Source: Bacteroidota bacterium (GTDB lineage Bacteria; Bacteroidota; Bacteroidia; Flavobacteriales_C; GCA-002722245). From it: a DNA stretch of 64,000 nucleotides. The position numbers and the translations under genes are program-made. Under the pieces are notes generated by a model, which saw nothing but the letters and a program-made list of their open reading frames with translations, searched no databases and had not been told where the DNA came from. Each line of letters starts with the position of its first letter. Position 1 is the first letter of the stretch. Below, piece after piece: positions 2,470 to 44,951 of this stretch. The DNA lies in assembly GCA_026390935.1 (NCBI GenBank), contig JAPLEZ010000153.1, forward strand, positions 4,052 to 68,051. Reading direction: 5' to 3'.

Positions 2470-2470
2470 C

Positions 2471-3760: not shown

Positions 3761-3805
3761 TTTACCTGTTTCTCGAAATCCTCCTTCCTCCGCACAGTCA
3801 ACGCA

Positions 3806-3905: not shown

Positions 3906-3966
3906 GTGCGAGGGATTCTGTGTGATGGCAAGAGGGATTTTGGGTCCTGGAATAAAGAAAGTAAAA

Positions 3967-22226: not shown

Positions 22227-22280
22227 CCGACTCTTCGCAAGCGCTTTATTTCCCAACAAATTAATTGTATTTTTAGGGCC

Positions 22281-27728: not shown

Positions 27729-28811
27729 AAACAAAGGATATAAAAACGATAAAGTTGCTGGCAAGGAAACATATTTGTACATAAAAAACGGATAGTTGTA
27801 CAAATAAAATAAGCGTGCTCTGAAAGATCCGCTATGTTCCACTTCCACTGCCAGTCGTTTTAATTTGTATGAAACACTTTCACGATTGATAGGAGGATCA
27901 ATGCTTCCAGGAATATATAAAATGAGTGATCTTGCTTTTTCCTTGCTTTTAAATGTGATTTTATTTTTTATTTCCGATGAATAATTTTTTGTTTTTAAAA
28001 GATCTTCAAGTAATGCAAAAGTAATGGACAATTGTTTATCAAATCCATGTTTTTCAGAAAGACGGATCAGATTATTTATTTCTACTTCGGAGGATTTTTT
28101 AACTAAGATATCTAGATCCACCAACCACATCAATCTTTCCCATGCGTGCTGAAATCCGTGCAATAAAAGATATGCTAAATATTGGGCGTTGCCCATGGTA
28201 GAAAATTCAGTGTTGCCAATTTTAATCGTTTGCTTTTCTTTCCAAATATCTTGGAAAGAGAGCGGTAAAATATAGTTGTTTCTGAAGAGTCGCCAATGAA
28301 TTTCAAGGTTTACTTTTTTTTCAGGATGATGGTATAAAAACTGGTCGAAGTTTTTAATCAATACTTCTTTTTGATTTTCTTTTATTTCAAATTCCGGACT
28401 CGTTCTTTTCCATCCAGCAGCAAGCAATATGTTGTTGATGCGAAAGAGCTCGTTGGGCGCAATTAACAAGTCGATATCCAAAGAAGGGCGACAAAGTTTA
28501 TTGCCATGTAAAATCTGGTTGAGCGCCAAGCCCTTTAACAGCAGAAACGAAAGCTGATTTTGTTGAAATAGCGCATTCAGCTCTAAGAGTGTTTTTTGTT
28601 GTCGGAAAGCCTTGCGAGAATCTGCAGTTATTTTTTGTTGCAAGCTATCTGTAAATTGATCAGCCAAGAATAGTTGCAGTTTGTGCTTCACTATGGTAGC
28701 GTGTTCAATAGAGTATGAGGTAGCATGATGGGTGTTGCCCAAACGAAATGCCAAGAGCTCAGTGAGATTCACAAAGTCTTCACAATAAGTTGATTTTAAC
28801 GCGGCGCTCAT
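27684..28811 (-). CDS. Uncharacterised nucleotidyltransferase-family protein (PF14907-like) of the type found in kinase-containing lasso peptide clusters
   Basis: SLDIDLLIAPNELFRINNILLAAGWKR ... HWRLF pattern; genomic context next to HPr-kinase-like gene. Confidence 0.5.
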   Translation of the reverse strand: MSAALKSTYCEDFVNLTELLAFRLGNTHHATSYSIEHATIVKHKLQLFLADQFTDSLQQKITADSRKAFRQQKTLLELNALFQQNQLSFLLLKGLALNQILHGNKLCRPSLDIDLLIAPNELFRINNILLAAGWKRTSPEFEIKENQKEVLIKNFDQFLYHHPEKKVNLEIHWRLFRNNYILPLSFQDIWKEKQTIKIGNTEFSTMGNAQYLAYLLLHGFQHAWERLMWLVDLDILVKKSSEVEINNLIRLSEKHGFDKQLSITFALLEDLLKTKNYSSEIKNKITFKSKEKARSLILYIPGSIDPPINRESVSYKLKRLAVEVEHSGSFRARLFYLYNYPFFMYKYVSLPATLSFLYPLFWPYVFVRNKVRNKN

Positions 28812-28897
28812 CTGCAGCTAAAATACATACTTTTATAGTTAACAAGTTGTGCTTCTCAAAATATTGTGTTTTAGCGTTAATGAATTACTTTTACGCC

Positions 28898-29791
28898 ATG
28901 GAAAAAAGATATATAGCGGGCGGAATAGTGATTGAAACCGACATTCACTTTCCTGAATTTGTGGAAAGCACTGAACAGCCAGATGTTCAGGTGGTTTACG
29001 GAAAAGTTCCCGAAGAAATTGAAAATCCAAAATCACAGCGGGTTTTGGTGCAGTCGAATGAAAATGAAGTTTTATTGAAAATGCCCGGTGTTGCCAGATA
29101 TTTGGTAGAAGGGGATTCAAAAATTACCATTGAACTGACTGATGAAAATCGTAAAAATGATGCCGAAAAATACGTCCTCACTTTTATCTTAGGTGTATTG
29201 TCCTTCAAAAAAGGATTTTTCCCTTTGCATGGTGGTGGCGTGGTTCACAAGGGCGAAGCCTACTTGTTCACGGGGCATTCAGGTGCGGGAAAATCAACTA
29301 CTTTGGCCGGATTGGCACAAAGAGGTTTTCAGCCTTTGGCCGATGATATCTCCAATTTTTTTGTTCATGACGGAAAAGTATTTGTTCATCCTTGTTTTCC
29401 CCGATTTAAATTGTGGAAGGACAGCATGCAAATGCTCAACAATGAAGGAAGTGGTGAATACAAATTGGGAACCGACATTGAAAAATATTTAGTTCCTGTT
29501 GGTGATGATTTTCCTACAGGACCAATTCCTGTGAAACGAATTTATTTGTTGCAGGAAGATCGTGACGACAAAACATTTTTTAAAGAAATAAAGGGGAAAG
29601 AGAAGTTGATGAAGCTGAAGCAAAACTCTTATAAACCTTGGATGGTAAAGGCATTTAATCTCAATCAGAAACATTTTTCATTGATGAATGATATCGCCGC
29701 TCAAGTGGAATTGAAGGAGTTTCATCGTCCTTTCGATAAAAAGAAAATTAACGAGATGTATGAATTTTTGATCAAAGATATTCAGGGATAA
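28898..29791 (+). CDS. HPr kinase/phosphorylase C-terminal-domain-like Ser/Thr kinase (lasso peptide kinase candidate)
   Basis: LFTGHSGAGKSTTLAGLAQRGFQPLADD (HprK P-loop + LADD); ATG at 28898 chosen over track start 28790, which overlaps the divergent gene. Confidence 0.7.
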   Translation: MEKRYIAGGIVIETDIHFPEFVESTEQPDVQVVYGKVPEEIENPKSQRVLVQSNENEVLLKMPGVARYLVEGDSKITIELTDENRKNDAEKYVLTFILGVLSFKKGFFPLHGGGVVHKGEAYLFTGHSGAGKSTTLAGLAQRGFQPLADDISNFFVHDGKVFVHPCFPRFKLWKDSMQMLNNEGSGEYKLGTDIEKYLVPVGDDFPTGPIPVKRIYLLQEDRDDKTFFKEIKGKEKLMKLKQNSYKPWMVKAFNLNQKHFSLMNDIAAQVELKEFHRPFDKKKINEMYEFLIKDIQG

Positions 29792-30658
29792 GTGCAAGGA
29801 AAAAACAACATAATTTGGCTTACGTCTTATCCTAAATCGGGCAATACCTGGATGCGCATGTTTTTGCATGCGTTGAAAACCGGTTGTGATCATGTGGAAA
29901 ATTTTGAACAGATTGAAGGTTCTGATGGCATTGCTTCTTCACGCTCTTTGTTGGATGAGTTATTGGGAATATATACTTCCGACATGGTGGATATTGAAAT
30001 TCAGAAATTAAGAGCAGATGCTTATCGCTTGTATTCATCTGAATTGACAGAAGAAATTATTGTGAAAGTTCATGATGCTGCTTTTCATGGCGGCATATTG
30101 ACTTTCCCTAAAGAGGTCACAAAAAAAGTAATTTACATAGTTAGAAATCCTTTTGATATGGTGGCTTCTTATGCTAATCATATGGGAAGCAGCATTGAAA
30201 AATCAGTGCAGTCTTTATGCGATGGAAATGGATTTTTGGCTGGAAATAAAAAGAAACTAAACAACCAAGTTACCCAATACATGGGCTCGTGGAGCGATCA
30301 CTACAACTCCTGGAAAAATTTGTATCGTGAAAATATTGAGGTGATTCGTTATGAAGATATGCTCAATGATTCCTTCGCTACTTTTAATAAAGTGGTGAAA
30401 TGCATCGGATGGGAGAAAACAAATGAGGAAATTGAAAAGGCAATAAGTGTGAGCGATTTTAAAAATTTGCGGTCGGTGGAAGAGCAGGCTGGATTTAGAG
30501 AGAAACCGAAAGAGACAAAACATTTTTTCCGACAAGGAAAATCCGGACAATGGAAAAATGAAATTACCCCTGAACAAGCGAAAACACTGGTCGACAGGCA
30601 TTTTTATACTTTGTTGGAATTGAATTATATTGATGCAGCGGGAAATATTTTGGTATGA
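29792..30658 (+). CDS. Sulfotransferase-domain protein (PAPS-dependent)
   Basis: IIWLTSYPKSGNTWMRMF (5'-PSB motif), IYIVRNPFDMVAS (3'-PB region). Confidence 0.7.
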   Translation: MQGKNNIIWLTSYPKSGNTWMRMFLHALKTGCDHVENFEQIEGSDGIASSRSLLDELLGIYTSDMVDIEIQKLRADAYRLYSSELTEEIIVKVHDAAFHGGILTFPKEVTKKVIYIVRNPFDMVASYANHMGSSIEKSVQSLCDGNGFLAGNKKKLNNQVTQYMGSWSDHYNSWKNLYRENIEVIRYEDMLNDSFATFNKVVKCIGWEKTNEEIEKAISVSDFKNLRSVEEQAGFREKPKETKHFFRQGKSGQWKNEITPEQAKTLVDRHFYTLLELNYIDAAGNILV

Positions 30659-32490
30659 GTGCTATATTCGGATATACAGGAAACACAGGTAGTGCAGAAG
30701 CTCTGTCAAAATCACTTAGGCATTGGCAACCTGATAGGGAAGCTATTTTGCAAGATGATAAGGTATCGCTTGGAGCATTGGAATTGTTCAATGTTCCTGA
30801 ATCCCCTTTAACTCCGCAACCCTACCAATACAAAGATTTGATAGTGGTTGCTGATTGCAGAATCGACAATAGGGAAGAGCTGGCAAAGGAATTTTCCATT
30901 AAGGATATTTCAGCCCACGCCGATATTGAATACATCGCTTTAGCCTATGAAAAATGGGGAAACGATGCGCCAAAATATTTAGTGGGCGATTTTGCTTTTG
31001 CAATTTGGGATAAAAAAAGTGATCAATTATTTGCTGCTCGAGATCATTTTGGAATTAAAACTTTGTACTATTCTGAAGTAAAAGGCGAACTTGTTTTTGC
31101 TTCCGAAATGAAAGGAATTTTGGCTTATCCTGGATTTAAAATTTCGTACAATGAAGAGTATATCATTAGTGAATTTTCAGCCTTAGAGCTTTCTGCCACC
31201 AGCACGTTTTACGACAATATTCATTTATTGCCTCAGGGATTTTCTTTGATCTGGAAAAATAAAATCGTGAGAAGCTCAGCCTATTGGACTTTTGGTGAAC
31301 GAACAGTAGAAATCCCTATAACTGTTGCCGAACAAGAAGCGGAGTTCAATCGCTTGGCCTATCAAAGCGTTCGAGACCGTTTGCGTTCGTTTAGAAGATT
31401 GGGTGCGGAGTCCAGCGGAGGATTGGATTCAACAGGTATTGCAGCCATTGCCATGGAAACTTTGGGCAAGGGAAAAGAGTTTTATTCTTTTGGTTATGGA
31501 AGGGCAGCCAATCCTACCACCGAGCAGGATGATAAGGATGACATGGACATCGTCCGGGATATGTGCGTAAAATACGGTATTGAAAAATATCTCACTGTTG
31601 TGAGTGAAAATGATTTGAATGGTCAGGAAATGCTTGATTTGATGATTGAGGTTTGCGATGATTACGAAAGCAACGGTGTGCCTTTAATGTCGTTGGCTCT
31701 GTTGAAGCACGCTGTGAAGAATGATGTTGGTGTGATGCTTTCTGGTTGGGCCGGAGATCAGGGAGTAACTTGTACAGCCGAAGGATTTTTTGAAAACTTG
31801 TCGAGGGAAAAAAGATACCGCGAGTTATGGAAAGATTTGCGCAGAAAACATTCGCGCTTAAAGGCACCATCCCGTTTTCTTTTTTACGTGTTGAAGGGTT
31901 GGAATAGAAATTCGTTTTATAAAAAGAACAATAAAGTAGAAAGATTGAATTTGGAGCTGGGTCCTTTAAAAGAGGAACTCATTGCTAAATACAATTTGAA
32001 AGAATTGAGAGGAGTAAACGCTTTCTTAAAGGATTGTTCCGACATTCAAACCTATTTCAAAAGAAATATACAGTATAAAGGTATTGAAAAAAGAACTTGT
32101 GATCATGTATTGATCGGTCAACATTTTCGCATTGAATACCGCTTTCCAATGCTAGATGTAAGATTGTTGGAGTACATTTATAGCTTGCCTTTTAGTACGA
32201 TAGCTCCGCAAGGGAAATCACGATATTTATTTAAAAAGTTGGTTCAACCTCTAGTGCCTCCTCGCCTAATCAGCATGCATAAAAGTTATGTTGCAACAAC
32301 ACCTTTTATCTTTAAGTTTAATGAAGCTTTTCTTCCCTTTGTGCGCGAGCAATTTTATGCTAACAGAAATCCGCTTTTAGATAAATATTTTGCGGTGCAA
32401 AAATTGGAAAAAGAAGGCTCTGAAAAGGAAGCTAAAAAAAGAAATAAAAGCTACCTAAAATTATACTTCTTTGCAAAGAAGATGAAATAG
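30655..32490 (+). CDS. Lasso peptide cyclase (C protein; asparagine-synthetase homologue lacking the Cys2 glutaminase nucleophile)
   Basis: Starts MSAIFGY (Ser in place of Cys), ARDHFGIKTLYY, ESSGGLDSTGIAAIA PP-loop; context with B1/B2/precursors/ABC. Confidence 0.7.
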   Translation: MSAIFGYTGNTGSAEALSKSLRHWQPDREAILQDDKVSLGALELFNVPESPLTPQPYQYKDLIVVADCRIDNREELAKEFSIKDISAHADIEYIALAYEKWGNDAPKYLVGDFAFAIWDKKSDQLFAARDHFGIKTLYYSEVKGELVFASEMKGILAYPGFKISYNEEYIISEFSALELSATSTFYDNIHLLPQGFSLIWKNKIVRSSAYWTFGERTVEIPITVAEQEAEFNRLAYQSVRDRLRSFRRLGAESSGGLDSTGIAAIAMETLGKGKEFYSFGYGRAANPTTEQDDKDDMDIVRDMCVKYGIEKYLTVVSENDLNGQEMLDLMIEVCDDYESNGVPLMSLALLKHAVKNDVGVMLSGWAGDQGVTCTAEGFFENLSREKRYRELWKDLRRKHSRLKAPSRFLFYVLKGWNRNSFYKKNNKVERLNLELGPLKEELIAKYNLKELRGVNAFLKDCSDIQTYFKRNIQYKGIEKRTCDHVLIGQHFRIEYRFPMLDVRLLEYIYSLPFSTIAPQGKSRYLFKKLVQPLVPPRLISMHKSYVATTPFIFKFNEAFLPFVREQFYANRNPLLDKYFAVQKLEKEGSEKEAKKRNKSYLKLYFFAKKMK

Positions 32491-33261
32491 ATGGGTGCAA
32501 TTTCTTATATAAAAGCCCGAACAAGTAATTTCAGAAATGCCATTTGGCATTCTAATAAATTTGGCTATCGCGTCCTCCGTCCACTATATGCCTCTGCGCA
32601 TTTTACTTTTTCCTTTTTATTCAATTCAGCATATCGAAATAAAACCATTGATTACTTAAAATACCGTAAGCATTACCATCAATTCCCAAATTTTACAAAG
32701 GCGAATCGTTATCCCGATTTATTTAGCATTTGTCAGCGATACTTTAAGGACAAAGAGCAGGTGAGAATTCTTTCTTTCGGATGCTCAACGGGTGAAGAGG
32801 TGTATAGTATCAATGAATATCTTCCTGAAGCTACCATTGTAGGAACCGATATTAGTGAATACAACTTGAAAGAGTGCAATAAAAAAGAGAAGAAGAAAAA
32901 CATTTCATTTATTCATAGCTTGTCGGAAACCTACCAACAAAGCAAAAATTTTGACGCGATATTTTGTTTGGCGGTTTTACAACACAACGATAATTTCAAC
33001 AAAGACATACCAACTGCTACTAAATATACCTTCAGTCAGTTTGAAGAGCAGATCATTACTTTAGACGAAAAGTTAAAATCAGGAGGCCTGTTTTTCATTG
33101 ATCAAACTGATTTCAATTTTTTGGAAACGAAACTCCGAAATCAATATTTTCCTTTGGAAGTTCGAGGCAATCGTAAAAGCAATCCCCGACCTTTATACAA
33201 TTCCAAAAATATCAGAATTTCCAATGAGCATAACTGTTTCAGGGTTTTTTTGAAGAAGTAG
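32491..33261 (+). CDS. CheR-type SAM-dependent (carboxyl) methyltransferase
   Basis: VRILSFGCSTGEEVYSI matches CheR motif (WSAGCSTGEEPYS); 256 aa. Confidence 0.55.
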   Translation: MGAISYIKARTSNFRNAIWHSNKFGYRVLRPLYASAHFTFSFLFNSAYRNKTIDYLKYRKHYHQFPNFTKANRYPDLFSICQRYFKDKEQVRILSFGCSTGEEVYSINEYLPEATIVGTDISEYNLKECNKKEKKKNISFIHSLSETYQQSKNFDAIFCLAVLQHNDNFNKDIPTATKYTFSQFEEQIITLDEKLKSGGLFFIDQTDFNFLETKLRNQYFPLEVRGNRKSNPRPLYNSKNIRISNEHNCFRVFLKK

Positions 33262-33311
33262 TGGTGAATTAATTGAATTTCTTTTATTTTTAGAAAAATA
33301 CCACATTGATT

Positions 33312-33437
33312 ATGGAAACAAAAAATGAAATAGAAGTAAAAAAAGTTTGGGTTAAACCTGAATTGAAAGTTGAAGAATTGAATATAACGGCTGTCAAAGG
33401 CACTAATATATTAGAAGGTGGTCCCTACCGCACTTAA
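33312..33437 (+). CDS. Lasso peptide precursor A1: METKNEIEVKKVWVKPELKVEELNITA|VKGTNILEGGPYRT (predicted core after leader Thr-2)
   Basis: Read by hand; not in ORF track (41 aa); shares leader KKVWVKPELKVEE with A2/A3. Confidence 0.65.
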   Translation: METKNEIEVKKVWVKPELKVEELNITAVKGTNILEGGPYRT

Positions 33438-33471
33438 TAGCATGTATAATTGAAATAATAGCATTTGCATT

Positions 33472-33591
33472 ATGAAAACAGAAAAAGAAGTAAAAAAAGT
33501 TTGGGTTAAACCTGAATTAAAAGTTGAAGAAGTAGAAGTTACTAATGGTGGTGGGGCGCGAGTTAGAGAATCAGGGACTTACAGAACGTAA
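33472..33591 (+). CDS. Lasso peptide precursor A2: MKTEKEVKKVWVKPELKVEEVEVTN|GGGARVRESGTYRT
   Basis: Read by hand (39 aa); leader Thr at -2, Gly1, Glu8 for 8-residue macrolactam. Confidence 0.7.
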   Translation: MKTEKEVKKVWVKPELKVEEVEVTNGGGARVRESGTYRT

Positions 33592-33595
33592 TTGT

Positions 33596-33805
33596 TTATA
33601 TCTCTTTGAGATAGTTAAAGAGTTCAAAATCTTTTTTGTAAAAGTCTTTAACCATTTCAAGTAATTCATCATCGTAAAATTCCATGAAATTCAAGTGCTT
33701 AGAGCTATTGATTTCATGGAATTTTGGTTTTGATAGGTTTAAGGTATTGAAGAAGGACTGGAGGATGAGCTTCGAGACCAATTTACTGTGGTGGCATGTG
33801 TTCAT
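33596..33805 (-). pseudogene. Truncated duplicate of the 3' end of the sulfotransferase gene at 34024-34650 (C-terminal ~47 aa near-identical)
   Basis: ...NLSKPKFHEINSSKHLNFMEFYDDELLEMVKDFYKKDFELFNYLKEI vs C-terminus of 34024..34650 product; nucleotide repeat 33592-33750 ~ 34017-34175. Confidence 0.6.
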
Positions 33806-33893
33806 TGCTTGGATAGTTGGCTTGCTGTCGCAGCTACATCGTCAATCATTGTTATTATTATCTAGATTTATTATTTTCGAAAAAAAATCACTC

Positions 33894-34019
33894 ATGGAAA
33901 ACAAGAACGAACAAGAAATTAAAAAAGTTTGGGTTAAACCTGAAGTTAAAGTTGAAGAAGTAGATGTTACTAATGGTGGTGGGCCGGGATTGAGAGAAGG
34001 AGGGACTTACAGATCGTAA
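33894..34019 (+). CDS. Lasso peptide precursor A3: MENKNEQEIKKVWVKPEVKVEEVDVTN|GGGPGLREGGTYRS
   Basis: Internal Met of track ORF 33684..34019; same leader; only last 41 codons judged real. Confidence 0.7.
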   Translation: MENKNEQEIKKVWVKPEVKVEEVDVTNGGGPGLREGGTYRS

Positions 34020-34023
34020 TCGT

Positions 34024-34650
34024 TTATATCTCTTTGAGATAGTTAAATAGTTCAAAATCTTTTTTGTAAAGGTCTTTAACCATTTCAAGTAATTCATCAT
34101 CGTAATATTCCATGAAATTCAAGTGCTTAGAGCTATTGATTTCATGGAATTTTGGTTTTCCTAGGTTTAAAGCACTAAAGATGTGCTGAAGGTCATTGTT
34201 GAAGTTTTCCACCTTTCCTATAAAATCCATTTTGAGTTGGCGGTTTTCATTGACTAAGAATTCAAACTGCGGCAGCAAATGAATTTTTGATTCCAGATTT
34301 TCCTTACTAAGCATTTTTTTAATTTCGTCTCGATGTACTGAAGGACTTATGTTTTCAGTCTTTTTTATGAAGAAGTAATAGGAGATGAGTCTATCGTATG
34401 GATTGCGAACAAAAGCAAATTTATAATATTCGTTGATTAATGGCTTGAAGTAGGGTTCTACTTCCGTATACTTTAAATGACCATGTGGAATATCGGCCAG
34501 TTTTTTAAAAGGAAGTTTGCTCGACTTAAATAATGCAACCTGTTCAAGGTCCTTTTCAGACAGATGTTCCCGCAAAGCAAAGCGCACTGAATGTGTTCCT
34601 GTTTTAGGAATCGCAAAAAACATAAATTTATGTTGGTGGCTGATGATCAC
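34024..34650 (-). CDS. Sulfotransferase-family protein (second sulfotransferase of the cluster)
   Basis: FFAIPKTGTHSVRFAL (PKTGTT-type 5'-PSB motif), VRNPYDRLISYY. Confidence 0.6.
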   Translation of the reverse strand: MIISHQHKFMFFAIPKTGTHSVRFALREHLSEKDLEQVALFKSSKLPFKKLADIPHGHLKYTEVEPYFKPLINEYYKFAFVRNPYDRLISYYFFIKKTENISPSVHRDEIKKMLSKENLESKIHLLPQFEFLVNENRQLKMDFIGKVENFNNDLQHIFSALNLGKPKFHEINSSKHLNFMEYYDDELLEMVKDLYKKDFELFNYLKEI

Positions 34651-35240
34651 AATTCAAAGTCGGGTTTTGGAACATCATTGATTTCGGCATCCAGATATTC
34701 GAATATTAAGTGAATACGAGCTGTATTGCCGTCGTTTCTTACGGCGTGCATGCCTGAATTGTCCATTTCATAGGCTTTGCCTTTTTCAAAATAATAGTCG
34801 ATTCCTCTCACCGAAAAAACAACCTGCGGATTTGTAATTATTGGAATGTGAATTTTATGGGGAGGCCAGAAAATATAGTCAGAATCAATGTGTTCGGGAA
34901 TTATGGTACCCGGAACCATGCGCGCCAACATCACTCTCGGAAAAAATCCTTTTTTATAGCCATAAGGTTCTACGGCTTTTTGCATGATTGGCAGCAAAAC
35001 AGCTTTATACTTGTCCCACAATTCCAAATCGAAATAGACACAGGGACCTTCTAGTTTTTTACTCCAACGAAAATTGACGTGATTGACTTGTGATAGAGAG
35101 TATTTTTTATTTTGATTGACTTTAAAATCTTCCTCCTTATCCCATTCATATATCAATTCGGGAAGTATTTTAATTAAAGGGTTAATGTCAACTTCCCCTA
35201 AAAACCGCACGCTGTTTGTTTTGCAATTGTTTTTTTCCAT
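34647..35240 (-). CDS. Aspartyl/asparaginyl beta-hydroxylase-family (AspH/LpxO-like) Fe(II)/2-oxoglutarate oxygenase
   Basis: PEHIDSD...H...NSGMHAVRNDG...RIHLIF cupin-type metal-binding pattern; 197 aa soluble. Confidence 0.45.
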   Translation of the reverse strand: MEKNNCKTNSVRFLGEVDINPLIKILPELIYEWDKEEDFKVNQNKKYSLSQVNHVNFRWSKKLEGPCVYFDLELWDKYKAVLLPIMQKAVEPYGYKKGFFPRVMLARMVPGTIIPEHIDSDYIFWPPHKIHIPIITNPQVVFSVRGIDYYFEKGKAYEMDNSGMHAVRNDGNTARIHLIFEYLDAEINDVPKPDFEL

Positions 35241-35307
35241 TAGTCTTCCTATTGCTTGATAAAGATATCGGTAAAATTATCTTATTTTTGCTCAAAATCT
35301 AGGAATC

Positions 35308-35580
35308 ATGGACTTGAATAAAAAAATCTCCCGCAGCGATAATTATGTTTTCAATGAAGTGGATGGAGAGTTGGTAATGATGAACATTGAAACAGGTTCG
35401 TACGCGAGCTTAAATGAAACTGGGAAATCTATTTGGTTGCAGTTGGAAACAGCTAAAACATTGGATAGTGTGATTGAAGGTTTGATTGCCGAATATGAAA
35501 TTGATAGAGCTACTTGTGAGCAAGAAGTTTTTCCTTTCGTGGAAAAAATGGTAAAAGACGAAATACTGATTTTAGCTTAA
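35308..35580 (+). CDS. PqqD-like RiPP recognition element (lasso peptide B1 protein)
   Basis: 90 aa, NEVDGELVMMNIETGSYASLNETGKSIWLQLETAKTLDSVIEGLIAEYEID - PqqD family pattern. Confidence 0.65.
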   Translation: MDLNKKISRSDNYVFNEVDGELVMMNIETGSYASLNETGKSIWLQLETAKTLDSVIEGLIAEYEIDRATCEQEVFPFVEKMVKDEILILA

Positions 35581-35609
35581 TTTTTATTGTGAGGGCCTGG
35601 AGTTTCGTG

Positions 35610-36812
35610 CTATAACTCTGTAATTTTTATCTCCGATTTTAAATTCTTTAGAGCAAAATTCACTTTGAATTTATTTCCTTTTTGTGGTGAAATAAAATAC
35701 AGTTGAGAGCTCCAATGATTGCTGGGATCCACTTTTTGAGGATGCATAGAAAGAACGTTGTTGCTCGATAATTCTGTTTCAAAGTACAGTAGCATTCCGT
35801 TGAAAATTCCGGAATTTTCCAAAGAAAATATTTTTTCACAATCTTCTACTTTATCTACAGCGTTTGAAAAATCTAGATGAGCCAATTCTATTGGTTCAGA
35901 AAGCACTTTCCAGTTTTTAGTTTCAGTGCTATTGATGTTGATTTTTTGTAAAGTTTGTTTGTCGTTAAATTCAAGGAACGAGGAAAAATCAACACCATAC
36001 CATTCTTTCCAATGGACAATATTTTCTGGTGACAATTGATTTTGATGGTATTTTTTAAAATCTGCTTCAACCGCCATTCCAAATACTGTAATGCTTTTGG
36101 GAATTATAATCGCGATGGGAGTGAGTAATCTCTCTTTAGCATCTTTAAAGGTTTTAATAATGCCTTCCTGGAAGGGATCATTCCCAATGATTTCGCTTAC
36201 CAAAACGGTGGCTTTTTCGGGTAAGGTTATTTTTGTCGAATCGCCGTGGATCAAAGTTATTTTATCTTCCAGTCTGTTGGCTTTAAAAACGGCACTTGCC
36301 ACTTCAATAAATTCGGTCCTTTCAATGGCATACACATGCTTTGCTCCGGCCATGGCTGCAGTAGCGGCTAATATGCCATTGCCAGTTCCAATATCTAATA
36401 CAATGTCGTTTGGGGTTACGGTTTCACGAATGGCTTTTTGAAAAGCTAATGTTCGCGCTTTATCGTTCAACATTCGGATATGAACAGGAAAGGAATCAAA
36501 TTTTCCGCTATGGAAACCAAAGGTGTTTTTGCTTTCGTCTTTTACTTCAAAAAAGCCTTTTTTGAGTAAGTCGTGAAAATCAGCAGTAAATGTTATAAAG
36601 GAACTTTTATCTGTGCAGCTGTCAGCTATTTTTTTGAGTCCGTCTTCAATGCTAGTCCATTGTTGAAAAACCTCCACAAGTTTTAATACTTCATTTGATT
36701 TTTTTATCCTCAACTCCCCATTAGAAATAGTAAAGCCCGAATCGGTAAATTGAAAATTTACTTTTCTATTGAATCTAATGATGTCTTTTTTGTTTATTTT
36801 CATGGAAATCAA
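35610..36812 (-). CDS. Protein-arginine-N-methyltransferase-like class I SAM methyltransferase
   Basis: DIVLDIGTGNGILAATAAMAGAKHVYAIE...LVSEIIGN closely parallels PRMT1 motifs I/post-I/II (VLDVGSGTGIL...AGARKVIGIE...IISEWMGY). Confidence 0.5.
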   Translation of the reverse strand: MISMKINKKDIIRFNRKVNFQFTDSGFTISNGELRIKKSNEVLKLVEVFQQWTSIEDGLKKIADSCTDKSSFITFTADFHDLLKKGFFEVKDESKNTFGFHSGKFDSFPVHIRMLNDKARTLAFQKAIRETVTPNDIVLDIGTGNGILAATAAMAGAKHVYAIERTEFIEVASAVFKANRLEDKITLIHGDSTKITLPEKATVLVSEIIGNDPFQEGIIKTFKDAKERLLTPIAIIIPKSITVFGMAVEADFKKYHQNQLSPENIVHWKEWYGVDFSSFLEFNDKQTLQKININSTETKNWKVLSEPIELAHLDFSNAVDKVEDCEKIFSLENSGIFNGMLLYFETELSSNNVLSMHPQKVDPSNHWSSQLYFISPQKGNKFKVNFALKNLKSEIKITEL

Positions 36813-36862
36813 ACTTAGTTAAATTTTGTAACTTGCAGGAAATTCTAAAGCGATTAAATCAA

Positions 36863-36988
36863 ATGGAAAATAAAATCAAAGAAGGAAAAAAAGTTTGGAT
36901 TAAACCTGAATTGGAAATTGAAGATGTGCTTTTAACCGAAGGCGGTCGAAATACTCCTGCTCCCGAGAACAGCACTCAGCGTACTTAG
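36863..36988 (+). CDS. Lasso peptide precursor A4 (divergent core): MENKIKEGKKVWIKPELEIEDVLLTE|GGRNTPAPENSTQRT
   Basis: Read by hand (41 aa); leader motif KKVWIKPELEIE; C-terminal RT. Confidence 0.6.
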   Translation: MENKIKEGKKVWIKPELEIEDVLLTEGGRNTPAPENSTQRT

Positions 36989-37021
36989 TTCAAGTAGCTT
37001 TTAAATAAAGCGAAACTCTAT

Positions 37022-37963
37022 ATGTATGGCACTTTTCAAAGACTTCAGCTCAGTGAAATAGATGAGCAGCAAGTAAGTTTGTCGGAACGCTACATTTCCC
37101 CCAACATTCAAATATTTGAAAAGGCTTTTTGTGATTTTAGAAAAGAGGTAGATGAGATTTGGAAAGCGGGATTTTCATCAACAATAAGTGCCCAAAAAAA
37201 TTCCTTTTTAAAAGAGAAAATTGAACAAAGCAAGAAGAAATTATTTTCTTCGGAAATAGCTGCATATCCTGTTGGAATATGCTATCCTCTTTCAGAAATA
37301 GCATTTCAATTCCTTATGGAATTGGAAGTGCACGATCCAAAATCGGTATTTTATTCTTTGCGTGAATTCCTTGAAAAAGGCGGCATCATTAAAGTAATTT
37401 GGGGAGAAGTTCGGCATGAGTTTTTTCAAACTTCTTTGCAAATTGGAGAATGGTGTGTTGATGTTGCCAACGATACCGTGGATGTGAAAAAACCTAAGGT
37501 GGTGTGTTTTAAGCTTACTGCTTCCGATTGCCCTTTTCATGAAGTTTTATCAATAGAGCAATATGTGCAAATAAAGCGATCGTATCATGATTGCACCATT
37601 TATGTGAATACCATATTTCCGCATTTATTTCCTTACTTTCCACTGCTGGTGCTTCAAAATAAAGATGGAAAAATCAGTTTAGACACATCCATTTGTGTGC
37701 TTGATTTGACATTGAGCAAGGGTTATGACTTTGTTTTTTCTTCTTTGTTTCAACCATTGCCAAAAGAAGTTTTTGAGCGCATATCAATAAAGGTGGATCG
37801 TTTGCGCGCTAAGTATCAATATGCTGAATTGCTGGAGTGTAGAAATTGCGCACTTGAAGAATTGGCAAAACTAAGTGTTGCTCAAGTGTTAACCGATAAA
37901 GCCACCATGACCAAAGTTAAAGCCACTGTGAAATACATTAATTTTATGGTGAATGCTTTGTAA
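37022..37963 (+). CDS. Hypothetical protein inside lasso cluster (no recognisable motif)
   Basis: 313-aa ORF, good coding appearance, co-oriented between precursor A4 and ABC exporter. Confidence 0.3.
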   Translation: MYGTFQRLQLSEIDEQQVSLSERYISPNIQIFEKAFCDFRKEVDEIWKAGFSSTISAQKNSFLKEKIEQSKKKLFSSEIAAYPVGICYPLSEIAFQFLMELEVHDPKSVFYSLREFLEKGGIIKVIWGEVRHEFFQTSLQIGEWCVDVANDTVDVKKPKVVCFKLTASDCPFHEVLSIEQYVQIKRSYHDCTIYVNTIFPHLFPYFPLLVLQNKDGKISLDTSICVLDLTLSKGYDFVFSSLFQPLPKEVFERISIKVDRLRAKYQYAELLECRNCALEELAKLSVAQVLTDKATMTKVKATVKYINFMVNAL

Positions 37964-38001: not shown

Positions 38002-39660
38002 ATGCACAATCTTAAATCCATACTTTCATTTTTCAAATTGATGCTTTCGCATTTCAGGTGGAAGATTGTATTGATTGTGTTGTTCGGTATACTTTTTTCC
38101 TTTTTTCAGGGCGTAGGAATTGTAATGATTATTCCACTGCTGGAATCTTTTCAGAACAATGGAAATTCCATGTTTACCAAGGTGTTTGAGTTTTTGGGCT
38201 GGAGTGGTGGATTGAATCAATTGTTGTTGATTTATTTTTTGATTTTACTTTTTTATGCGCTCTTCAAAGCTTTGCAAATTTTATACACGCAACGCACGAT
38301 CGCACGTTTTTCCAATCAATTTGCAGTAGATGCCATGCAGCATTTGCTAACGGCCAATTGGGAATTTTATTTAAAAGTACCTTCTTCACAAATCATTAAT
38401 TTATTGAAAACCGAAAGTCGTTCGGTGAAAACATTGGCGCATTTTCTTTTTCAGGCAATGCAGGGCGCAATATTAATTGCCATTCAATTGTTTTTTGCTT
38501 GCTGGATTTCTGTTAAGCTCACAGCACTTTTGCTGGTGATACTGGTATTTTTATTTCTCATTCAGCGCTTTGTTTTTAAAGCCAATTACAATTTAGGAAA
38601 GGGAAATGTGGGCTTGTCGGAATTTTTACAAAAATATCTCAACGAGACTTTTAAAGGAATAAAACTATTGAAGTTACACCGACTGGAACTGAAAAAAGGT
38701 AAAGAGTACGAGGAACAAATGGAAAGAATTTACCAAAATGAAATTAAGAAGTCGACGATGGATGCTTTGAGCGATTTGCTGTACACCTTGTCGGGAGCGC
38801 TCATCATTATTTTAATGATAGGATTCAGCATTTCTTACAATTTACTTTCTATTACGTCCTTATTGGTTTTACTGGTTTTATTTTCCAGGGTAATTTCACA
38901 GTCTACAGCTCTTGTTCAAACTACAGGTTATATTGTGAATTTAATTCCATCTTTTAATCGCTTTGCTGAAATAGTTGATTTGGCGAAGGAAAGCGCACAG
39001 CAACCTTCAGAGAAGTTGGAAAGAAGAAATATTGCATCATTGGAATTGAAAAACATTCACTTCTCTTTTGGAGAGAAAAAAATATTGAACGATCTCAACA
39101 TCAAATTTGAAAAAGGAAAATTTTATGTGCTCACTGGTGCAAGCGGAGTGGGAAAAACCATTACTTCCGATTTGATTTGCGGATTGATTTCGCCTCAGCA
39201 AGGAGAAATCATCATTGATGGAAATATAGTGAGTATAGAGCTCTTAAAAAGCTATCAGGCGTCTATCGGTTATGTTTTGCAGGATACTGTTTTGTTTGGC
39301 ACTTCCATCCGCAACAACATCACTTTCATGGAAAATTATTCCGATGAACAAATTTTAAATGCTGCACATAAAGCCGGATTGAAAAGTCTTTTGGAAAAAT
39401 TGCCCGAAGGATTAGATGCTATTGTGAAAGAAGACAATCGCGGATTTTCGGGAGGTGAAATGCAACGCATTGCCATTGCCCGTGCGCTCATTCGCAAAAC
39501 TCCTTTGATTATTTTGGATGAGGTAACCAACGCTTTGGATAGAAAAAACGAAGACATTATTTTGGCTACGATCAACGAAATAAAAAAAGACAGCATTGTG
39601 ATTTTAATCACGCATAAAGAGTATTTGTTTGATTTGGCCGACGAAGTAGTACGTTTGTAA
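38002..39660 (+). CDS. ABC transporter, fused permease/ATP-binding protein (lasso peptide exporter D candidate)
   Basis: N-terminal 6-TM region; Walker A GASGVGKT, signature FSGGEMQRIAIARAL, Walker B LIILDEVTNALD. Confidence 0.8.
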   Translation: MHNLKSILSFFKLMLSHFRWKIVLIVLFGILFSFFQGVGIVMIIPLLESFQNNGNSMFTKVFEFLGWSGGLNQLLLIYFLILLFYALFKALQILYTQRTIARFSNQFAVDAMQHLLTANWEFYLKVPSSQIINLLKTESRSVKTLAHFLFQAMQGAILIAIQLFFACWISVKLTALLLVILVFLFLIQRFVFKANYNLGKGNVGLSEFLQKYLNETFKGIKLLKLHRLELKKGKEYEEQMERIYQNEIKKSTMDALSDLLYTLSGALIIILMIGFSISYNLLSITSLLVLLVLFSRVISQSTALVQTTGYIVNLIPSFNRFAEIVDLAKESAQQPSEKLERRNIASLELKNIHFSFGEKKILNDLNIKFEKGKFYVLTGASGVGKTITSDLICGLISPQQGEIIIDGNIVSIELLKSYQASIGYVLQDTVLFGTSIRNNITFMENYSDEQILNAAHKAGLKSLLEKLPEGLDAIVKEDNRGFSGGEMQRIAIARALIRKTPLIILDEVTNALDRKNEDIILATINEIKKDSIVILITHKEYLFDLADEVVRL

Positions 39661-39674
39661 AAATTTAATTTCTG

Positions 39675-40847
39675 TTGATTATGAATTTTTCTGAAGTGAT
39701 TCATCCTGTTACGGTAAAAGAATTTTTTGACGACTATTACGAAAAAAAACCTTTGTACATTGCACGAAACAATCCTTCGTATTACCATACTTTCCTGAGT
39801 GTGCAGGAGATTGATGCTTATTTACAATTGAAGCAAACTTATGCGCCAAATGTGAAAATGGCTTTTCAAGGAAAGGAAGTTTCTCCATTGTTGTTTTGTG
39901 ATCCCGCAGGTTCTGTTGTGCCATTTAGAGTGAACCCTGATAAAATGCTCGACTTGTTCAAACAGGGTTACACCATTAAATACGATAAGTTGCACCAAAC
40001 CTATCCTCCCTTGGCGCAAAAGGTATCGGCCATTGAGCAGGAGATTGGCATTAAAATTAGAACGAGTTTGTACATTACTCCAGAAAATTCACAGGGATAC
40101 GGTGTTCATACCGACAGGCACGATGTGTTGGCGTTGCAAATTAATGGTGCAAAAATTTGGAAAGTGAAATCTTCCACAGAAATTTTGCCTTCGGTTTACC
40201 AAACCAATATTGCAGTGAATTGGACGGAAGAAGGTGTTCAGGAAATTTGTTTGAAGGCGGGAGATTTTTTTTACTGTCCGCGTGGATTAGCGCACGATGT
40301 GTTTACCAAAGATCAGTCGTCCATACACTATACCCTCGGATTCAAACCCGTGTACGGCTACAATCTCGTTGAAAAATTAAGCGCCTTGGCTTATAAAAAT
40401 TCTTTTTTCAGAAGTGCCGTTCCAAATAATTTTTCATCTGTTGCAGACAGGGATTCATACCAAAAGAGATGGCAAAAAGAATTGGAAGAAATAATTGCGT
40501 TGATGAATTTTGATGATGTTGATGTTTTGGGAGAAGAAGCGACAAAGCAGTCCCAAATAAATTTTGAAGCCGGCAGGTTTATTGCGCAAATTTATCAGCC
40601 TTCACTGAGCGATAAATTTGTTCTTTGTTCAATACCTTGGGAATTAACTTTTACAAAAGTGGCTTGCAGAATTGATATTCTTGGTGGAAAGCACGACTTT
40701 CCTTATTTGCTAAAAGAGTTTTTTGAGAATATTAAAAGCGATACGCTATTCTCTACTTCGCTGGATAAATTGAACTTAAATGATGCTCAAAAGTTGAAAT
40801 TGATCAAAAGATTATTGAAAATACAATTGATTCGAAAGGTTGATTAG
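39675..40847 (+). CDS. JmjC/cupin-4-family Fe(II)/2OG oxygenase (RoxA/YcfD-like ribosomal-oxygenase fold)
   Basis: GYGVHTDRHDVLALQINGAKIWKV (HxD) ... CPRGLAHDV (distal His). Confidence 0.55.
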   Translation: MIMNFSEVIHPVTVKEFFDDYYEKKPLYIARNNPSYYHTFLSVQEIDAYLQLKQTYAPNVKMAFQGKEVSPLLFCDPAGSVVPFRVNPDKMLDLFKQGYTIKYDKLHQTYPPLAQKVSAIEQEIGIKIRTSLYITPENSQGYGVHTDRHDVLALQINGAKIWKVKSSTEILPSVYQTNIAVNWTEEGVQEICLKAGDFFYCPRGLAHDVFTKDQSSIHYTLGFKPVYGYNLVEKLSALAYKNSFFRSAVPNNFSSVADRDSYQKRWQKELEEIIALMNFDDVDVLGEEATKQSQINFEAGRFIAQIYQPSLSDKFVLCSIPWELTFTKVACRIDILGGKHDFPYLLKEFFENIKSDTLFSTSLDKLNLNDAQKLKLIKRLLKIQLIRKVD

Positions 40848-40985
40848 GTGTGGTACTCAGCGTCTTCCCTTATGTTCAATATACCACCACCTAGCGTGGA
40901 ATCTAGCTCTAAATCAGTCATTGCAGGAGCAACCCATTGTTTTTTTTCTGGTGTCATAAGAATTAATTTTTTCAAAGATAGTAAT

Positions 40986-42005
40986 TTATAGTTTAGGATA
41001 CTGCATGCTGATGCAGTGAATGGAGCCATGCTGCTTGATTAGCGGAACACTGTTGATGGAAATAATCTCTTTATCAGGGAATATGCTTTGCATTATTTTC
41101 AGTGCCTCTGCGTCTTTGCTGGAATTGTAAATTGGAAACAAAATCGCATCATTCATAATTAAAAAATTGGCGTAGGTGGCCGGAAGTCTTTCGCCATCGT
41201 CATCATAAGCTGCATCAGCCATAGGGAGGGCAACGAGTTTGTATTTTTCACCTTGCAAATTAGTGCAACGTTGCAGTTCTTCTTCCATCTTGCTCAATTC
41301 GCTGTAATGCTCATCGTTGGGATCATCGCACTTCACATAGGCAATGGTATTTTCGTTGCAGAAACGTGCGAGGGTATCAATGTGACTGTCGGTATCGTCT
41401 CCAGCTAGATAACCATGATTGATCCAGATGACTTTTTCAACGTGCAGCAATTCCTTGAGTAGCTTTTCAATTTCGGTGATGGTCCATTGAGGATTACGGT
41501 TTTCTTCCAGCAAACATTCGCTGGTAGTCATTAGCACGCCTTGTCCGTCTACTTCCAAGGATCCGCCTTCTAGCACAATGTGGTTTAAATCTTTTATTGT
41601 CCAGGAGGAAGGAAAAGCTTTTGCATCATAAAGTTTTTGAGTGATGGCGCTGTCTTTTTCAGCAGCGAATTTTTTGCCCCAGCCGTTGAATTGAAAATCT
41701 AAAACAACAGGCTTTCCATTTTCTAAAATGGTAATTCCGCCGTGATCTCTTGCCCAGGTATCGTTCACATCACATTGGTAAATTTCAATGTTGTTGAGGT
41801 TACAATGTTGCACATAAGATTTTACTTCTTCCACATTTTGTGCGGCGATGATGAGTTTTTGACGCTTTGCAATTTCAAAAGCAATTTTTTTGTAGCACTC
41901 TTGAACCTCATCCCAAATGTCGGCCCAGTCGGTGTTTTGGTGAGGCCAGGTGAGTTGTACCGCGCTTTGCGGAAACCATTCGGGGGGGAAGAAGTTATGA
42001 TTCAT
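40986..42005 (-). CDS. Agmatine deiminase / Porphyromonas-type peptidylarginine deiminase family protein
   Basis: N-term FFPPEWFPQSAVQLTWPHQNTDW (cf. AguA MPAEWEPH..TWMxWP), C-term GSIHCISMQ (catalytic Cys, cf. GGIHCITQQ). Confidence 0.75.
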   Translation of the reverse strand: MNHNFFPPEWFPQSAVQLTWPHQNTDWADIWDEVQECYKKIAFEIAKRQKLIIAAQNVEEVKSYVQHCNLNNIEIYQCDVNDTWARDHGGITILENGKPVVLDFQFNGWGKKFAAEKDSAITQKLYDAKAFPSSWTIKDLNHIVLEGGSLEVDGQGVLMTTSECLLEENRNPQWTITEIEKLLKELLHVEKVIWINHGYLAGDDTDSHIDTLARFCNENTIAYVKCDDPNDEHYSELSKMEEELQRCTNLQGEKYKLVALPMADAAYDDDGERLPATYANFLIMNDAILFPIYNSSKDAEALKIMQSIFPDKEIISINSVPLIKQHGSIHCISMQYPKL

Positions 42006-44321: not shown

Positions 44322-44325
44322 ATCC

Positions 44326-44874: not shown

Positions 44875-44951
44875 AAATGCTTTTTTGTATTTATGTCAGA
44901 GTTGGGGAAAAGGTAACCATGAAATGGAAAATAGATTCTTTAATTTGTGGA

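Follow-up and report, generated by a model that had tools for sequence, protein, structure and literature searches.

The window, a stretch of 64,000 nucleotides from a Flavobacteriales-like Bacteroidota metagenome-assembled genome (MAG), likely carries a complete split-B lasso gene cluster of about 15 kb (about 26.9-42.0 kb of the window), whose five precursor genes (A1 to A5) would encode unusually short lasso peptides; this grade applies to the explanation as a whole. Pfam and NCBIfam profile matches placed the core set (B2, PqqD-type B1, Asn-synthetase-like cyclase and ABC exporter) in the locus; a conserved protein is listed with it:

26911-27396, + strand: lasso leader peptidase B2, transglutaminase-like (NF033537, 81.9 bits, cutoff 33; PF13471)
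30655-32490, + strand: lasso cyclase C (top NCBIfam match the lasso cyclase model NF033535, 267.7 bits, below its cutoff of 525)
35308-35580, + strand: lasso B1, PqqD-type RRE chaperone (NF033536, 74 bits; PF05402)
37022-37963, + strand: conserved 313-aa protein
38002-39660, + strand: ABC exporter, lasso D-type (orthologs 74-80% identical)

The cyclase begins with MSAIFGY, so it does not have the Cys that true Asn synthetases carry at the N-terminus. Its orthologs in the related clusters L050 and L053 are 61-63% identical, and those of B1 are 92% identical in L035 and 87% in L053. A second cyclase type is present in related loci and absent from the window; the single cyclase would need to take both Gly1 and Val1 and to close 8- and 9-membered rings. 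In several of the related loci, the gene for the 313-aa protein lies directly 3' of a precursor gene; the protein has homologs in L001, L035, L048 and L050-L053. It had no match in Pfam or NCBIfam, and its AF2 model (pLDDT 41) was unusable.

A sequence-only reading had described four precursors. All four peptides were reproduced letter for letter on the + strand in the ORF listing and the aligned translations, but the count was one short, as a fifth precursor (A5, 40957-40844 on the - strand) lies outside the region considered there. In the predicted cores below, a slash follows the ring Glu:

33312-33437, + strand: precursor A1, leader METKNEIEVKKVWVKPELKVEELNITA, core VKGTNILE/GGPYRT (14 aa; predicted Val1-Glu8 ring and six-residue tail; NCBI annotation NT150_15320)
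33472-33591, + strand: precursor A2, leader MKTEKEVKKVWVKPELKVEEVEVTN, core GGGARVRE/SGTYRT
33894-34019, + strand: precursor A3, leader MENKNEQEIKKVWVKPEVKVEEVDVTN, core GGGPGLRE/GGTYRS (within a longer ORF starting at 33684)
36863-36988, + strand: precursor A4, leader MENKIKEGKKVWIKPELEIEDVLLTE, core GGRNTPAPE/NSTQRT (predicted Gly1-Glu9 ring; the listed ORF starts at a TTG, 36833)
40844-40957, - strand: precursor A5, leader MTPEKKQWVAPAMTDLELDSTL, core GGGILNIRE/DAEYHT (begins 29 nt 3' of the PAD_porph gene)

The degenerate DNA pattern for KKVW[VI]KPE occurred four times in the window (0.00 expected, 100 shuffles). In Peribacillus the same leader adjoins C, HprK, B1, B2 and ABC genes, in a cluster of the paeninodin type, and a Rikenella MAG has it next to B2, C and B1. 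The homologous precursor P0004 (GGRNIAGGE/NATYRT) occupies the position of A4 in a syntenic contig, and the counterpart of A5 is the only precursor found in L053.

The leader/core boundary was checked against 12 homologs from other metagenomes/MAGs (independent contigs, several in syntenic clusters), giving a family of 17 peptides with A1-A5, numbered with cleavage after the residue immediately C-terminal to Thr(-2). The same register was kept throughout. Trp at -15, Pro at -12 and a hydrophobic residue at -10 were found in 17/17 peptides, Thr(-2) in 16/17, Glu at core position 7-9 (predicted ring 7-9) in 17/17, exactly six residues after this Glu in 16/17, and a terminal Ser/Thr in 17/17; four of the five window precursors end in Thr. 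The motif recognised by discrete lasso RREs is [Y/W]xxPx[L/V/I/A/F/Y]; PbaA, a paeninodin-like leader bound by its B1, has a WxxPxL motif with Trp at -15 (PMC13381572), the register of the 17 peptides. All of A1-A4 show the common leader, Thr(-2), one Glu at core position 8 or 9 and six residues following it and, as each of these cores has exactly one acidic residue (Glu8 or Glu9), the predicted ring acceptor is unambiguous. The earlier interpretation as lasso precursors cleaved at this site, with a Glu8/9 ring and a six-residue tail, thus gains support from B2, B1 and the cyclase in the locus, from homologs in the same register, from its match to the published W-15 register and from the leader motif next to lasso genes in Peribacillus. 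The Arg plus hydroxyl residue that it gave as the end of every core is seen in A1-A4, which end in [Y/Q]-R-[T/S], but is not shared by all cluster precursors, because A5 ends in Y-H-T; in the family, the penultimate Arg is found in 10 of 17.

The peptides might be cleaved and cyclised as predicted, with a six-residue tail too short to hold a thread, and would then be unthreaded branched-cyclic (lariat) peptides; we consider this rather unlikely. The empirical minimum after the acceptor is a loop of 3 plus a tail of 2 residues, and solved lassos have 14-33 aa (PMC12214591). Six residues suffice by this measure but lie at the minimum; P0005 would measure only 13 aa, and in some members tail positions 4 and 5 hold small residues (P0013 ends in TGS, P0011 in FSS). 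By contrast, the tail is exactly six residues in 16 of the 17 members despite variable ring and tail sequences, and a length that stays fixed while sequences vary speaks for a constraint of geometry, threading for example. In most members, tail positions 4 and 5 hold an aromatic and then a basic residue, a pair that could serve as plugs, and extra bulk could come from a phosphate or glycosyl-phosphate at the C-terminal residue. A six-residue tail lies at the lower limit for known lassos, and threading is not inferable from sequence.

A 284-nt direct repeat (33481-33764 and 33909-34192, 90% identity) carries a precursor (the A2 copy) and one further feature:

33596-33805, - strand: remnant of the 3' end of the Sulfotransfer_2 gene, copied together with a precursor

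Only some of the precursor genes might be functional, A2 being a by-product of recent segmental duplication that may be unexpressed or unprocessed. The truncated, presumably dead, sulfotransferase end was copied along with it, a related lineage has a decayed precursor with two in-frame stops, and A2 seems never to have been gene-called in any source, as no entry of the protein collection has exactly its sequence. Nevertheless, the A2 ORF is intact and keeps W-15, P-12, L-10, T-2, Glu8 and the six-residue tail, and its core departs from A3 at several positions yet retains the family features; we find it decidedly unlikely that only some of the genes function. The computed [M+H]+ of the predicted A2 lasso is 1448.735.

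Two genes following B2 resemble those of phosphorylated lasso peptides:

27684-28811, - strand: NTP_transf_5 nucleotidyltransferase (PF14907, E 4e-43)
28790-29791, + strand: HPr-kinase-like lasso kinase (Walker A GHSGAGKST; weak Pfam/NCBIfam matches, below cutoffs)

The kinase matched that of the paeninodin-type Peribacillus cluster (tblastn E 7e-32). Its L053 ortholog is 81% identical with an alignment beginning at residue 33, and translation probably begins near residue 31-37 of the ORF as listed. The terminal Ser/Thr is a plausible target: the enzyme would most likely phosphorylate this residue, the only hydroxyl conserved across all precursors. Characterised lasso-type kinases act on Ser, BsfK (PMC10368454) and LppK on Ser3 and not at the C-terminus; LppK gave no phosphorylation when Thr replaced its target Ser, and according to a review the paeninodin kinase recognises a C-terminal Ser. 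In pseudomycoidin biosynthesis, a nucleotidyltransferase puts a hexose on the phosphorylated residue, and the NTP_transf_5 enzyme may likewise attach a sugar to the terminal phosphate.

The cluster resembles the paeninodin-type systems (paeninodin, pseudomycoidin, PbaA/PbaB1) in its split B1/B2, HprK-like kinase, NTP_transf_5 and ABC exporter, and the precursors do so in a WxxPxL leader with Trp -15 and Thr -2 and a core ending in a hydroxyl residue; the Peribacillus precursor also has the common KKVWVKPEL leader. However, paeninodins are restricted to Bacillota according to a 2026 paper (PMC13381572), whereas the window host is Bacteroidota. The window cores have 14-15 aa with a fixed six-residue tail (about 22 aa in the Peribacillus core), they end mostly in Thr rather than Ser, and the cluster has five precursors plus an RRE-fused PRMT-type enzyme, two sulfotransferases, two 2OG oxygenases and a further methyltransferase. 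The Bsf system of Bradymonas sediminis is likewise a Gram-negative lasso cluster with an HprK-like kinase (PMC10368454). There, B1 helps tailoring of the linear precursor and BsfK phosphorylates Ser3 (PMC10368454), but Bsf has a YxxPxL leader, Ile(-2) and the Ser3 site, while the window precursors keep Thr(-2); none of the five window cores has Ser or Thr at position 3.

It is highly improbable that the products are phosphorylated but linear RiPPs, comparable to the linear polyphosphorylated peptides (LPPs) recently reported from Bacillota, made with the kinase, NTP transferase and RRE in use and the cyclase idle. The HprK-like kinase, NTP_transf_5, discrete RRE and ABC exporter do form the LPP core set minus its signal-peptidase-type leader peptidase (PMC13381572), but the cluster has B2 and a lasso-type cyclase, both conserved in related clusters, and no gene for signal peptidase I was noticed. 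Moreover, the leaders have WxxP without the YxxPxVLxHQxIxFETxxS motif of LPP leaders, and an acidic residue stands at position 7-9 of every core.

The lasso cluster also encodes a methyltransferase fused to a predicted RRE fold:

35610-36812, - strand: RRE-fused PRMT-family methyltransferase (~1-100 RRE fold; ~100-400 PRMT catalytic and beta-barrel domains)

The enzyme keeps motif I, an NHW loop and the double-E loop (SEIIGNDPFQE); together with the N-terminal RRE fold, these indicate that it probably acts on leader-bearing precursors. This precursor-directed role is well supported by the motifs and the predicted structure, from which the RRE assignment derives; profile comparison of the N-terminal region with B1 proteins gave no match. 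The enzyme would most likely methylate an Arg guanidinium on the linear, leader-bearing precursor. The link with Arg is imperfect: P0008 (L035) and the 43-aa precursor of L050 have no core Arg, yet both clusters carry the PRMT-type enzyme. Eukaryotic PRMTs (PRMT1, Hmt1, PRMT7, CARM1) align with its Rossmann catalytic and beta-barrel domains over ~270 residues, and the THW-like loop (NHW here), the double-E loop and motif I are common to both. Unlike these, the window enzyme is bacterial, has an N-terminal RRE fusion and is encoded in lasso clusters. We found no description of a leader-binding arginine-methyltransferase-type enzyme for lasso peptides among the papers searched.

Six further genes, and the 313-aa protein listed above, may contribute to tailoring:

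29792-30658, + strand: sulfotransferase 1 (PF00685; nearest solved relatives Teg12, Teg14 and StaL)
32491-33261, + strand: class I SAM methyltransferase, directly after the cyclase stop codon (position kept in three related clusters)
34024-34650, - strand: sulfotransferase 2 (PF03567; same position in the syntenic ENA contig)
34647-35240, - strand: Asp/Asn beta-hydroxylase-family 2OG oxygenase (PF05118; same position in the syntenic contig)
39675-40847, + strand: JmjC_2 (ribosomal-oxygenase-type) 2OG oxygenase (PF08007)
40986-42005, - strand: PAD_porph/agmatine-deiminase-like gene, directly upstream of A5 (PF04371)

Tyr sulfation is a candidate modification, suggested by one sulfotransferase that resembles, at family level, the glycopeptide sulfotransferases Teg12/Teg14/StaL; a solved relative was sought for sulfotransferase 2 and none was found. 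The nearest solved relatives of the JmjC_2 oxygenase are the histidyl hydroxylases NO66 and MINA53, with a weaker match to the arginyl hydroxylase YcfD. Citrulassin offers a lasso peptide with a modified Arg (to citrulline), and here a deiminase-superfamily gene lies directly upstream of A5, whose core Arg adjoins the ring Glu. The PAD of citrulassin, however, is a PF03068 enzyme whose gene lies outside the citrulassin cluster. The nearest solved relatives and best NCBIfam models of the window gene are agmatine deiminases, which makes its role in the cluster doubtful; it is 83-88% identical in L050 and L053, a level not far from that of the housekeeping AsnRS (87-96%), and its membership of the cluster is uncertain.

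Judging from the published motif, B1 would bind the leader through W(-15)xxP(-12)x[L/V/M](-10). B2 would cut after the residue immediately C-terminal to Thr(-2), and the cyclase would link the freed N-terminal residue (Val in A1, otherwise Gly) to the Glu8 side chain in A1-A3 and to that of Glu9 in A4 and A5. The products would have 14-15 residues with a C-terminal segment fixed at six. If threaded, this segment would leave a minimal loop of ~3 residues and end in Ser/Thr, and the aromatic and basic side chains of tail positions 4 and 5 would act as plugs. The ABC transporter would export the product.

The sequence-only reading reported four lasso precursors (A1-A4). All four open reading frames translate exactly as it gave them, but the count was incomplete, as a fifth precursor (A5) was found at 40957-40844 on the minus strand.

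Precursor genes (coordinates, strand, description)
33312-33437, +, A1, annotated as hypothetical protein NT150_15320
33472-33591, +, A2, exact sequence absent from every source of the protein collection
33894-34019, +, A3, annotated as hypothetical protein NT150_15325
36863-36988, +, A4, annotated as hypothetical protein NT150_15350
40844-40957, -, A5, leader MTPEKKQWVAPAMTDLELDSTL, ring GGGILNIRE and tail DAEYHT, 29 nt downstream of the PAD_porph-family gene

The DNA pattern encoding KKVW[V/I]KPE occurred four times in the window and not once in 100 shuffles. Protein searches traced A1, A3 and A4 to the MAG deposited as "Bacteroidetes bacterium". A5 was uncalled in the NCBI annotation of this MAG, although an independent Logan contig (10.4 kb) has a called peptide identical to it; two of the five window precursors are missing from the public annotation of the MAG. 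A counterpart of A5 (leader METNKKKWEAPEISDLGVDATL, ring SNPTPNVRE, tail TAEFKS) lies 11 nt downstream of the same PAD_porph gene in a Flavobacteriales MAG (L053), whose otherwise syntenic cluster yielded no other precursor. The AsnRS proteins of the two organisms were 95.5% identical over 134 aligned residues. Two further candidates were rejected as precursors: the gap between B1 and the methyltransferase in L053, and a 70-aa ORF in L050, a 67.9-kb contig with a syntenic cluster.

A2 and A3 lie within a 284-nt direct repeat (33481-33764 and 33909-34192, 90% identity), indicating that precursor number grew here by segmental duplication. The duplication also took in the 3' end of Sulfotransfer_2 and left a 69-codon remnant between A2 and A3 (33596-33805, minus strand). 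A promoter and terminator scan of 33000-37200, made with a tool that does not cover Bacteroidota promoters, gave sites no commoner than in shuffled sequence. In two related contigs a decayed precursor was observed downstream of the PAD_porph gene (L050, around 12700-12850, and L051, around 5560-5710, both on the minus strand). It reads MNIEKK*TAPEM*DFSITDSGYRPPIAENSGD, with one of its two in-frame stops at the conserved Trp position, and, being found unchanged in contigs from two separate samples, is a pseudogene and not the product of sequencing errors.

Twelve more family members from other contigs brought the set to 17 peptides with A1-A5. They came from two profile searches, one of the word-indexed collection and an exhaustive one of 1.84 billion representatives, and from scanning genomes and metagenomes by DNA pattern. 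Cleavage was set after the residue following Thr(-2), as in the sequence-only reading. Trp at -15, Pro at -12, a hydrophobic residue at -10 (L, V or M in all five window precursors), Glu at core position 7, 8 or 9, and Ser or Thr as the last residue were present in 17 of 17 precursors. Thr at -2 was present in 16 (including A1-A5; the L050 precursor has Met), and exactly six residues follow the ring Glu in 16 of the 17. The acceptor is Glu8 in A1-A3 and Glu9 in A4 and A5. As A1-A4 have only one acidic core residue each, accepting the cleavage site leaves no doubt about their ring acceptor. A1 has Val as core residue 1, as do the homologous precursors P0006 and P0007. The penultimate Arg, described earlier as strictly conserved, is present in A1-A4 but in only 10 of the 17 peptides; other endings are YHT (A5 and P0014), FKS (L053), KFT (P0008), and FSS or TGS. 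The robust family rule is Glu, six residues, and a terminal Ser or Thr.

The motif bound by discrete lasso RREs is [Y/W]xxPx[L/V/I/A/F/Y], and PbaA, a paeninodin-like leader, meets its B1 via W-15 (PMC13381572). In Peribacillus frigoritolerans, a paeninodin-like core with the same KKVWVKPEL leader lies beside C, HprK, B1, B2 and ABC genes. The proposed leader/core boundary and the Glu acceptor column were kept in the alignment with the 12 homologs, and the register holds across the 17 precursors and matches the published one; with both related precursors and a published register in agreement, the structural prediction stands. Syntenic clusters holding some of the homologs were also found on an ENA contig (L001; methyltransferase, precursor, Sulfotransfer_2, beta-hydroxylase, PqqD, precursor, PRMT-like gene, precursor and unknown protein, in this order) and on L035 (cyclase, B1, three precursors, unknown protein and PRMT-like gene). 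The W-15/P-12/T-2 register is a simple rule for finding such precursors.

The functions of the cluster genes were called from Pfam and NCBIfam scans, which point to a lasso cluster of the split-B type.

Genes of the lasso cluster (coordinates, strand, product)
26911-27396, +, B2 leader peptidase (NF033537, 81.9 bits, above cutoff)
27684-28811, -, NTP_transf_5
28790-29791, +, HPr-kinase-like protein with P-loop
29792-30658, +, Sulfotransfer_1
30655-32490, +, Asn-synthetase-like cyclase
32491-33261, +, SAM methyltransferase, beginning right after the cyclase stop codon
33312-34019, +, block of A1, A2 and A3
34024-34650, -, Sulfotransfer_2 (PF03567)
34647-35240, -, Asp/Asn beta-hydroxylase-family oxygenase
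35308-35580, +, PqqD-type B1
35610-36812, -, PRMT-like methyltransferase
37022-37963, +, 313-aa protein without family match
38002-39660, +, ABC exporter
39675-40847, +, JmjC_2 oxygenase
40986-42005, -, PAD_porph-family gene

B1 scored 60.7 bits with PF05402 (above the Pfam cutoff) and 74 bits with NF033536 (just under the cutoff of 80). The best NCBIfam model for the cyclase was the lasso cyclase NF033535 (267.7 bits, under the cutoff of 525), and the protein has no catalytic Cys1, unlike true Asn synthetases. Directly upstream of B2, an exopolysaccharide-type block (20415-26947, plus strand) encodes a methyltransferase, two glycosyltransferases and two genuine Asn synthetases of the glutamine-dependent kind, the second of which has an ORF whose end runs into the listed start of B2. 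This second ORF (25058-26947) was rejected as a second lasso cyclase, having Cys1 and scoring as a genuine AsnB/EPS-type amidotransferase. Both Asn synthetases (20415-22226 and 25058-26947) were rejected as cluster members, as they have Cys1 and genuine amidotransferase scores and lie among glycosyltransferases. At the other edge, 42033-45251 (minus strand, between the PAD_porph gene and AsnRS) encodes a 762-aa anti-sigma-like protein, an ECF sigma factor and a HigA-like HTH gene; being present in L053 and absent in L050, this block is a variable insertion. Some related loci (L050, 1955-2125, minus strand, and 2417-4096, plus strand; L035, 3058-4380, minus strand) have a second cyclase type, absent from the window and about 26% identical to the window cyclase (52% between L050 and L035). 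L050 also has a longer precursor, with the leader MEKKKWSQPKLLSLNNKETA followed by AGVCSASRE and GQTRRTV...HYGS.

The 313-aa protein had no Pfam or NCBIfam match and one non-self homolog in the word-indexed search, and its AF2 model from two sequences (pLDDT 41) was unusable. Homologs of about 305 aa, also without family match, were observed in L001 (402-785), L035 (1342-2241, minus strand), L048 (2713-3636), L050 (10001-10918) and L053 (9039-9959, minus strand). The gene directly follows a precursor in the window, L001, L035 and L048, and lies beside the PRMT-like gene in L050-L053.

The window locus has the lasso gene set of leader peptidase, RRE and macrolactam cyclase, and all five precursors carry the [Y/W]xxPx[hydrophobic] leader motif with Thr(-2) and a Glu acceptor within core positions 7-9. 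The empirical minimum for a lasso is a loop of 3 and a tail of 2 residues, and solved lassos have 14-33 aa (PMC12214591). Six residues after the acceptor suffice for this minimum, near its lower limit. If they are lassos, the family peptides would be among the shortest, P0005 having just 13 aa. For the predicted lassos without further modification, the calculated [M+H]+ values are 1486.801 (A1), 1448.735 (A2), 1345.661 (A3), 1567.757 (A4) and 1626.787 (A5). The fixed tail length, with an aromatic residue at tail position 4 and a basic one at position 5, may reflect the needs of a minimal threaded design. These features support the structural interpretation as a putative Bacteroidota lasso family with a paeninodin-like WxxP leader, a minimal fixed tail and five precursors.

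The tailoring set, whose chemistry is predicted from the genes throughout, includes a PRMT-family enzyme that appears to be fused to an RRE. This protein aligned with the solved PRMT7, PRMT1/Hmt1, PRMT3 and CARM1 over both domains (E 3e-26 to 1e-22) and matched PRMT_C. It contains HxxMLxDxxRT, motif I (VLDIGTGNGILA), the double-E loop SEIIGNDPFQE and NHW in place of THW, motifs nearly invariant across 47 homologs; motif I, the double-E loop, the THW loop and the C-terminal beta-barrel place it in the PRMT family. In the AlphaFold model, the first 109 residues form four strands and then three helices (pLDDT 85), a predicted arrangement that agrees with the PqqD/B1-like winged helix of RREs (3-4 strands, then three helices). 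This fold came out only in structure prediction and fold searches: hhalign of the N-terminal region (3 sequences) found no similarity to B1 proteins, and Pfam at E up to 10 gave nothing meaningful for it. Together, the PRMT motifs and the modelled RRE fold indicate that the protein is probably a PRMT-family enzyme that binds the leader and takes part in RiPP tailoring. Homologs numbered 133 at E<=1e-10, most of about 400 aa, and lasso clusters surround all three of the distant members inspected, those of a Flavobacteriales MAG, Lentisphaera araneosa HTCC2155 and Cyclobacteriaceae YHN15. Our best inference for its predicted activity is Arg methylation of the linear precursor. The candidate methylation site is not fixed; some precursors in enzyme-bearing clusters have no Arg, and in addition to the penultimate Arg, one just before the ring Glu recurs in A2, A3, A5, P0005, P0006, P0010 and the L053 precursor. 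In the literature searched, we found no paper tying PRMT-type enzymes to lasso peptides and no characterised lasso example with sulfotransferase, arginine methyltransferase, methylarginine, PRMT or Lentisphaera.

The window kinase has a P-loop, a weak Hpr_kinase_C match, and a tblastn match (E 7e-32) to its counterpart in a paeninodin-type cluster of Peribacillus. The window shares the HprK-like kinase of paeninodin-type phosphorylated lassos. In that type the phosphorylation site is a C-terminal Ser; of the window precursors A3 alone ends in Ser, and A1, A2, A4 and A5 end in Thr. According to a review, the paeninodin kinase recognises a C-terminal Ser, and the related enzyme LppK rejected Thr in place of Ser (PMC13381572). 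BsfK and LppK act on Ser3 (PMC10368454, PMC13381572); none of the five window precursors has Ser or Thr at core position 3. The terminal Ser/Thr is the favoured candidate target of the kinase, because it is the sole hydroxyl conserved in every precursor. Paeninodin-type lassos have been described as restricted to Bacillota (PMC13381572), whereas the window host is a Bacteroidota MAG. A second, larger Bacteroidota-type lasso family was also observed (L018, L020, L022, L025-L027, L033, L034, L036, L037, L040, L041, L044 and L046; also L010 and L055), with the leader KKVW[VI]KPEV..L.IKKDTF, cores starting SGS..G.E, and the gene order NTP_transf_5, HprK, B2, precursor, C, B1. Despite the kinase, its cores have no terminal Ser/Thr.

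The nearest solved relatives of the first sulfotransferase were the glycopeptide sulfotransferases Teg12, Teg14 and StaL, followed by phenol and alcohol sulfotransferases, which is compatible with Tyr O-sulfation without being specific for it. The second (PF03567) had no solved relative at E up to 0.01. The JmjC_2 protein most resembled the ribosomal histidyl hydroxylases NO66 and MINA53, with a weaker resemblance to the arginyl hydroxylase YcfD. In L047 (184-1736), a gene of the flavin-dependent Trp-halogenase family (PF04820, E 2e-106) comes 2 nt after P0014 (ring GGPNTAIAE, tail GGLYHT, no core Trp).

The PAD_porph gene belongs to PF04371 (397.7 bits), with agmatine deiminases as its best NCBIfam and PDB matches, whereas the citrulassin PAD belongs to PF03068. 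Its identity between genomes (83-88%) is on par with that of the housekeeping AsnRS (87-96%), compared to 33-81% for cluster genes. The gene lies constantly directly upstream of a precursor, or of the decayed one in L050 and L051, and for this reason a role in the cluster is possible, if somewhat doubtful.

To our knowledge, phosphorylation has not been demonstrated on Thr, nor O-sulfation on any lasso peptide. A joint reading, in which peptides of 13-15 aa with the fixed tail of six residues would be the shortest known lassos and would undergo Arg N-methylation at the leader stage by the RRE-PRMT, phosphorylation of the terminal Thr/Ser (possibly as a glycosyl-phosphate) and O-sulfation, is tentative and, taken as a whole, rather unlikely. 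If true, RiPP biosynthesis would gain its first arginine methyltransferase, and the PRMT family a bacterial branch with a defined substrate.

Lasso peptides are prized as stable scaffolds and antibiotics. Solved lasso structures come from three phyla only, according to the LassoPred survey (PMC12214591). The locus adds a Bacteroidota family whose architecture is strict and minimal, with 7-9 residues in the predicted ring and exactly six after it, and an unusually dense set of tailoring genes; five candidate natural substrates for one cyclase would be useful for engineering. The most transferable result is a PRMT-family enzyme with what is predicted to be its own leader-binding domain, recurring in lasso clusters of at least two phyla, which raises the question of whether bacteria use PRMT chemistry on ribosomal natural products.
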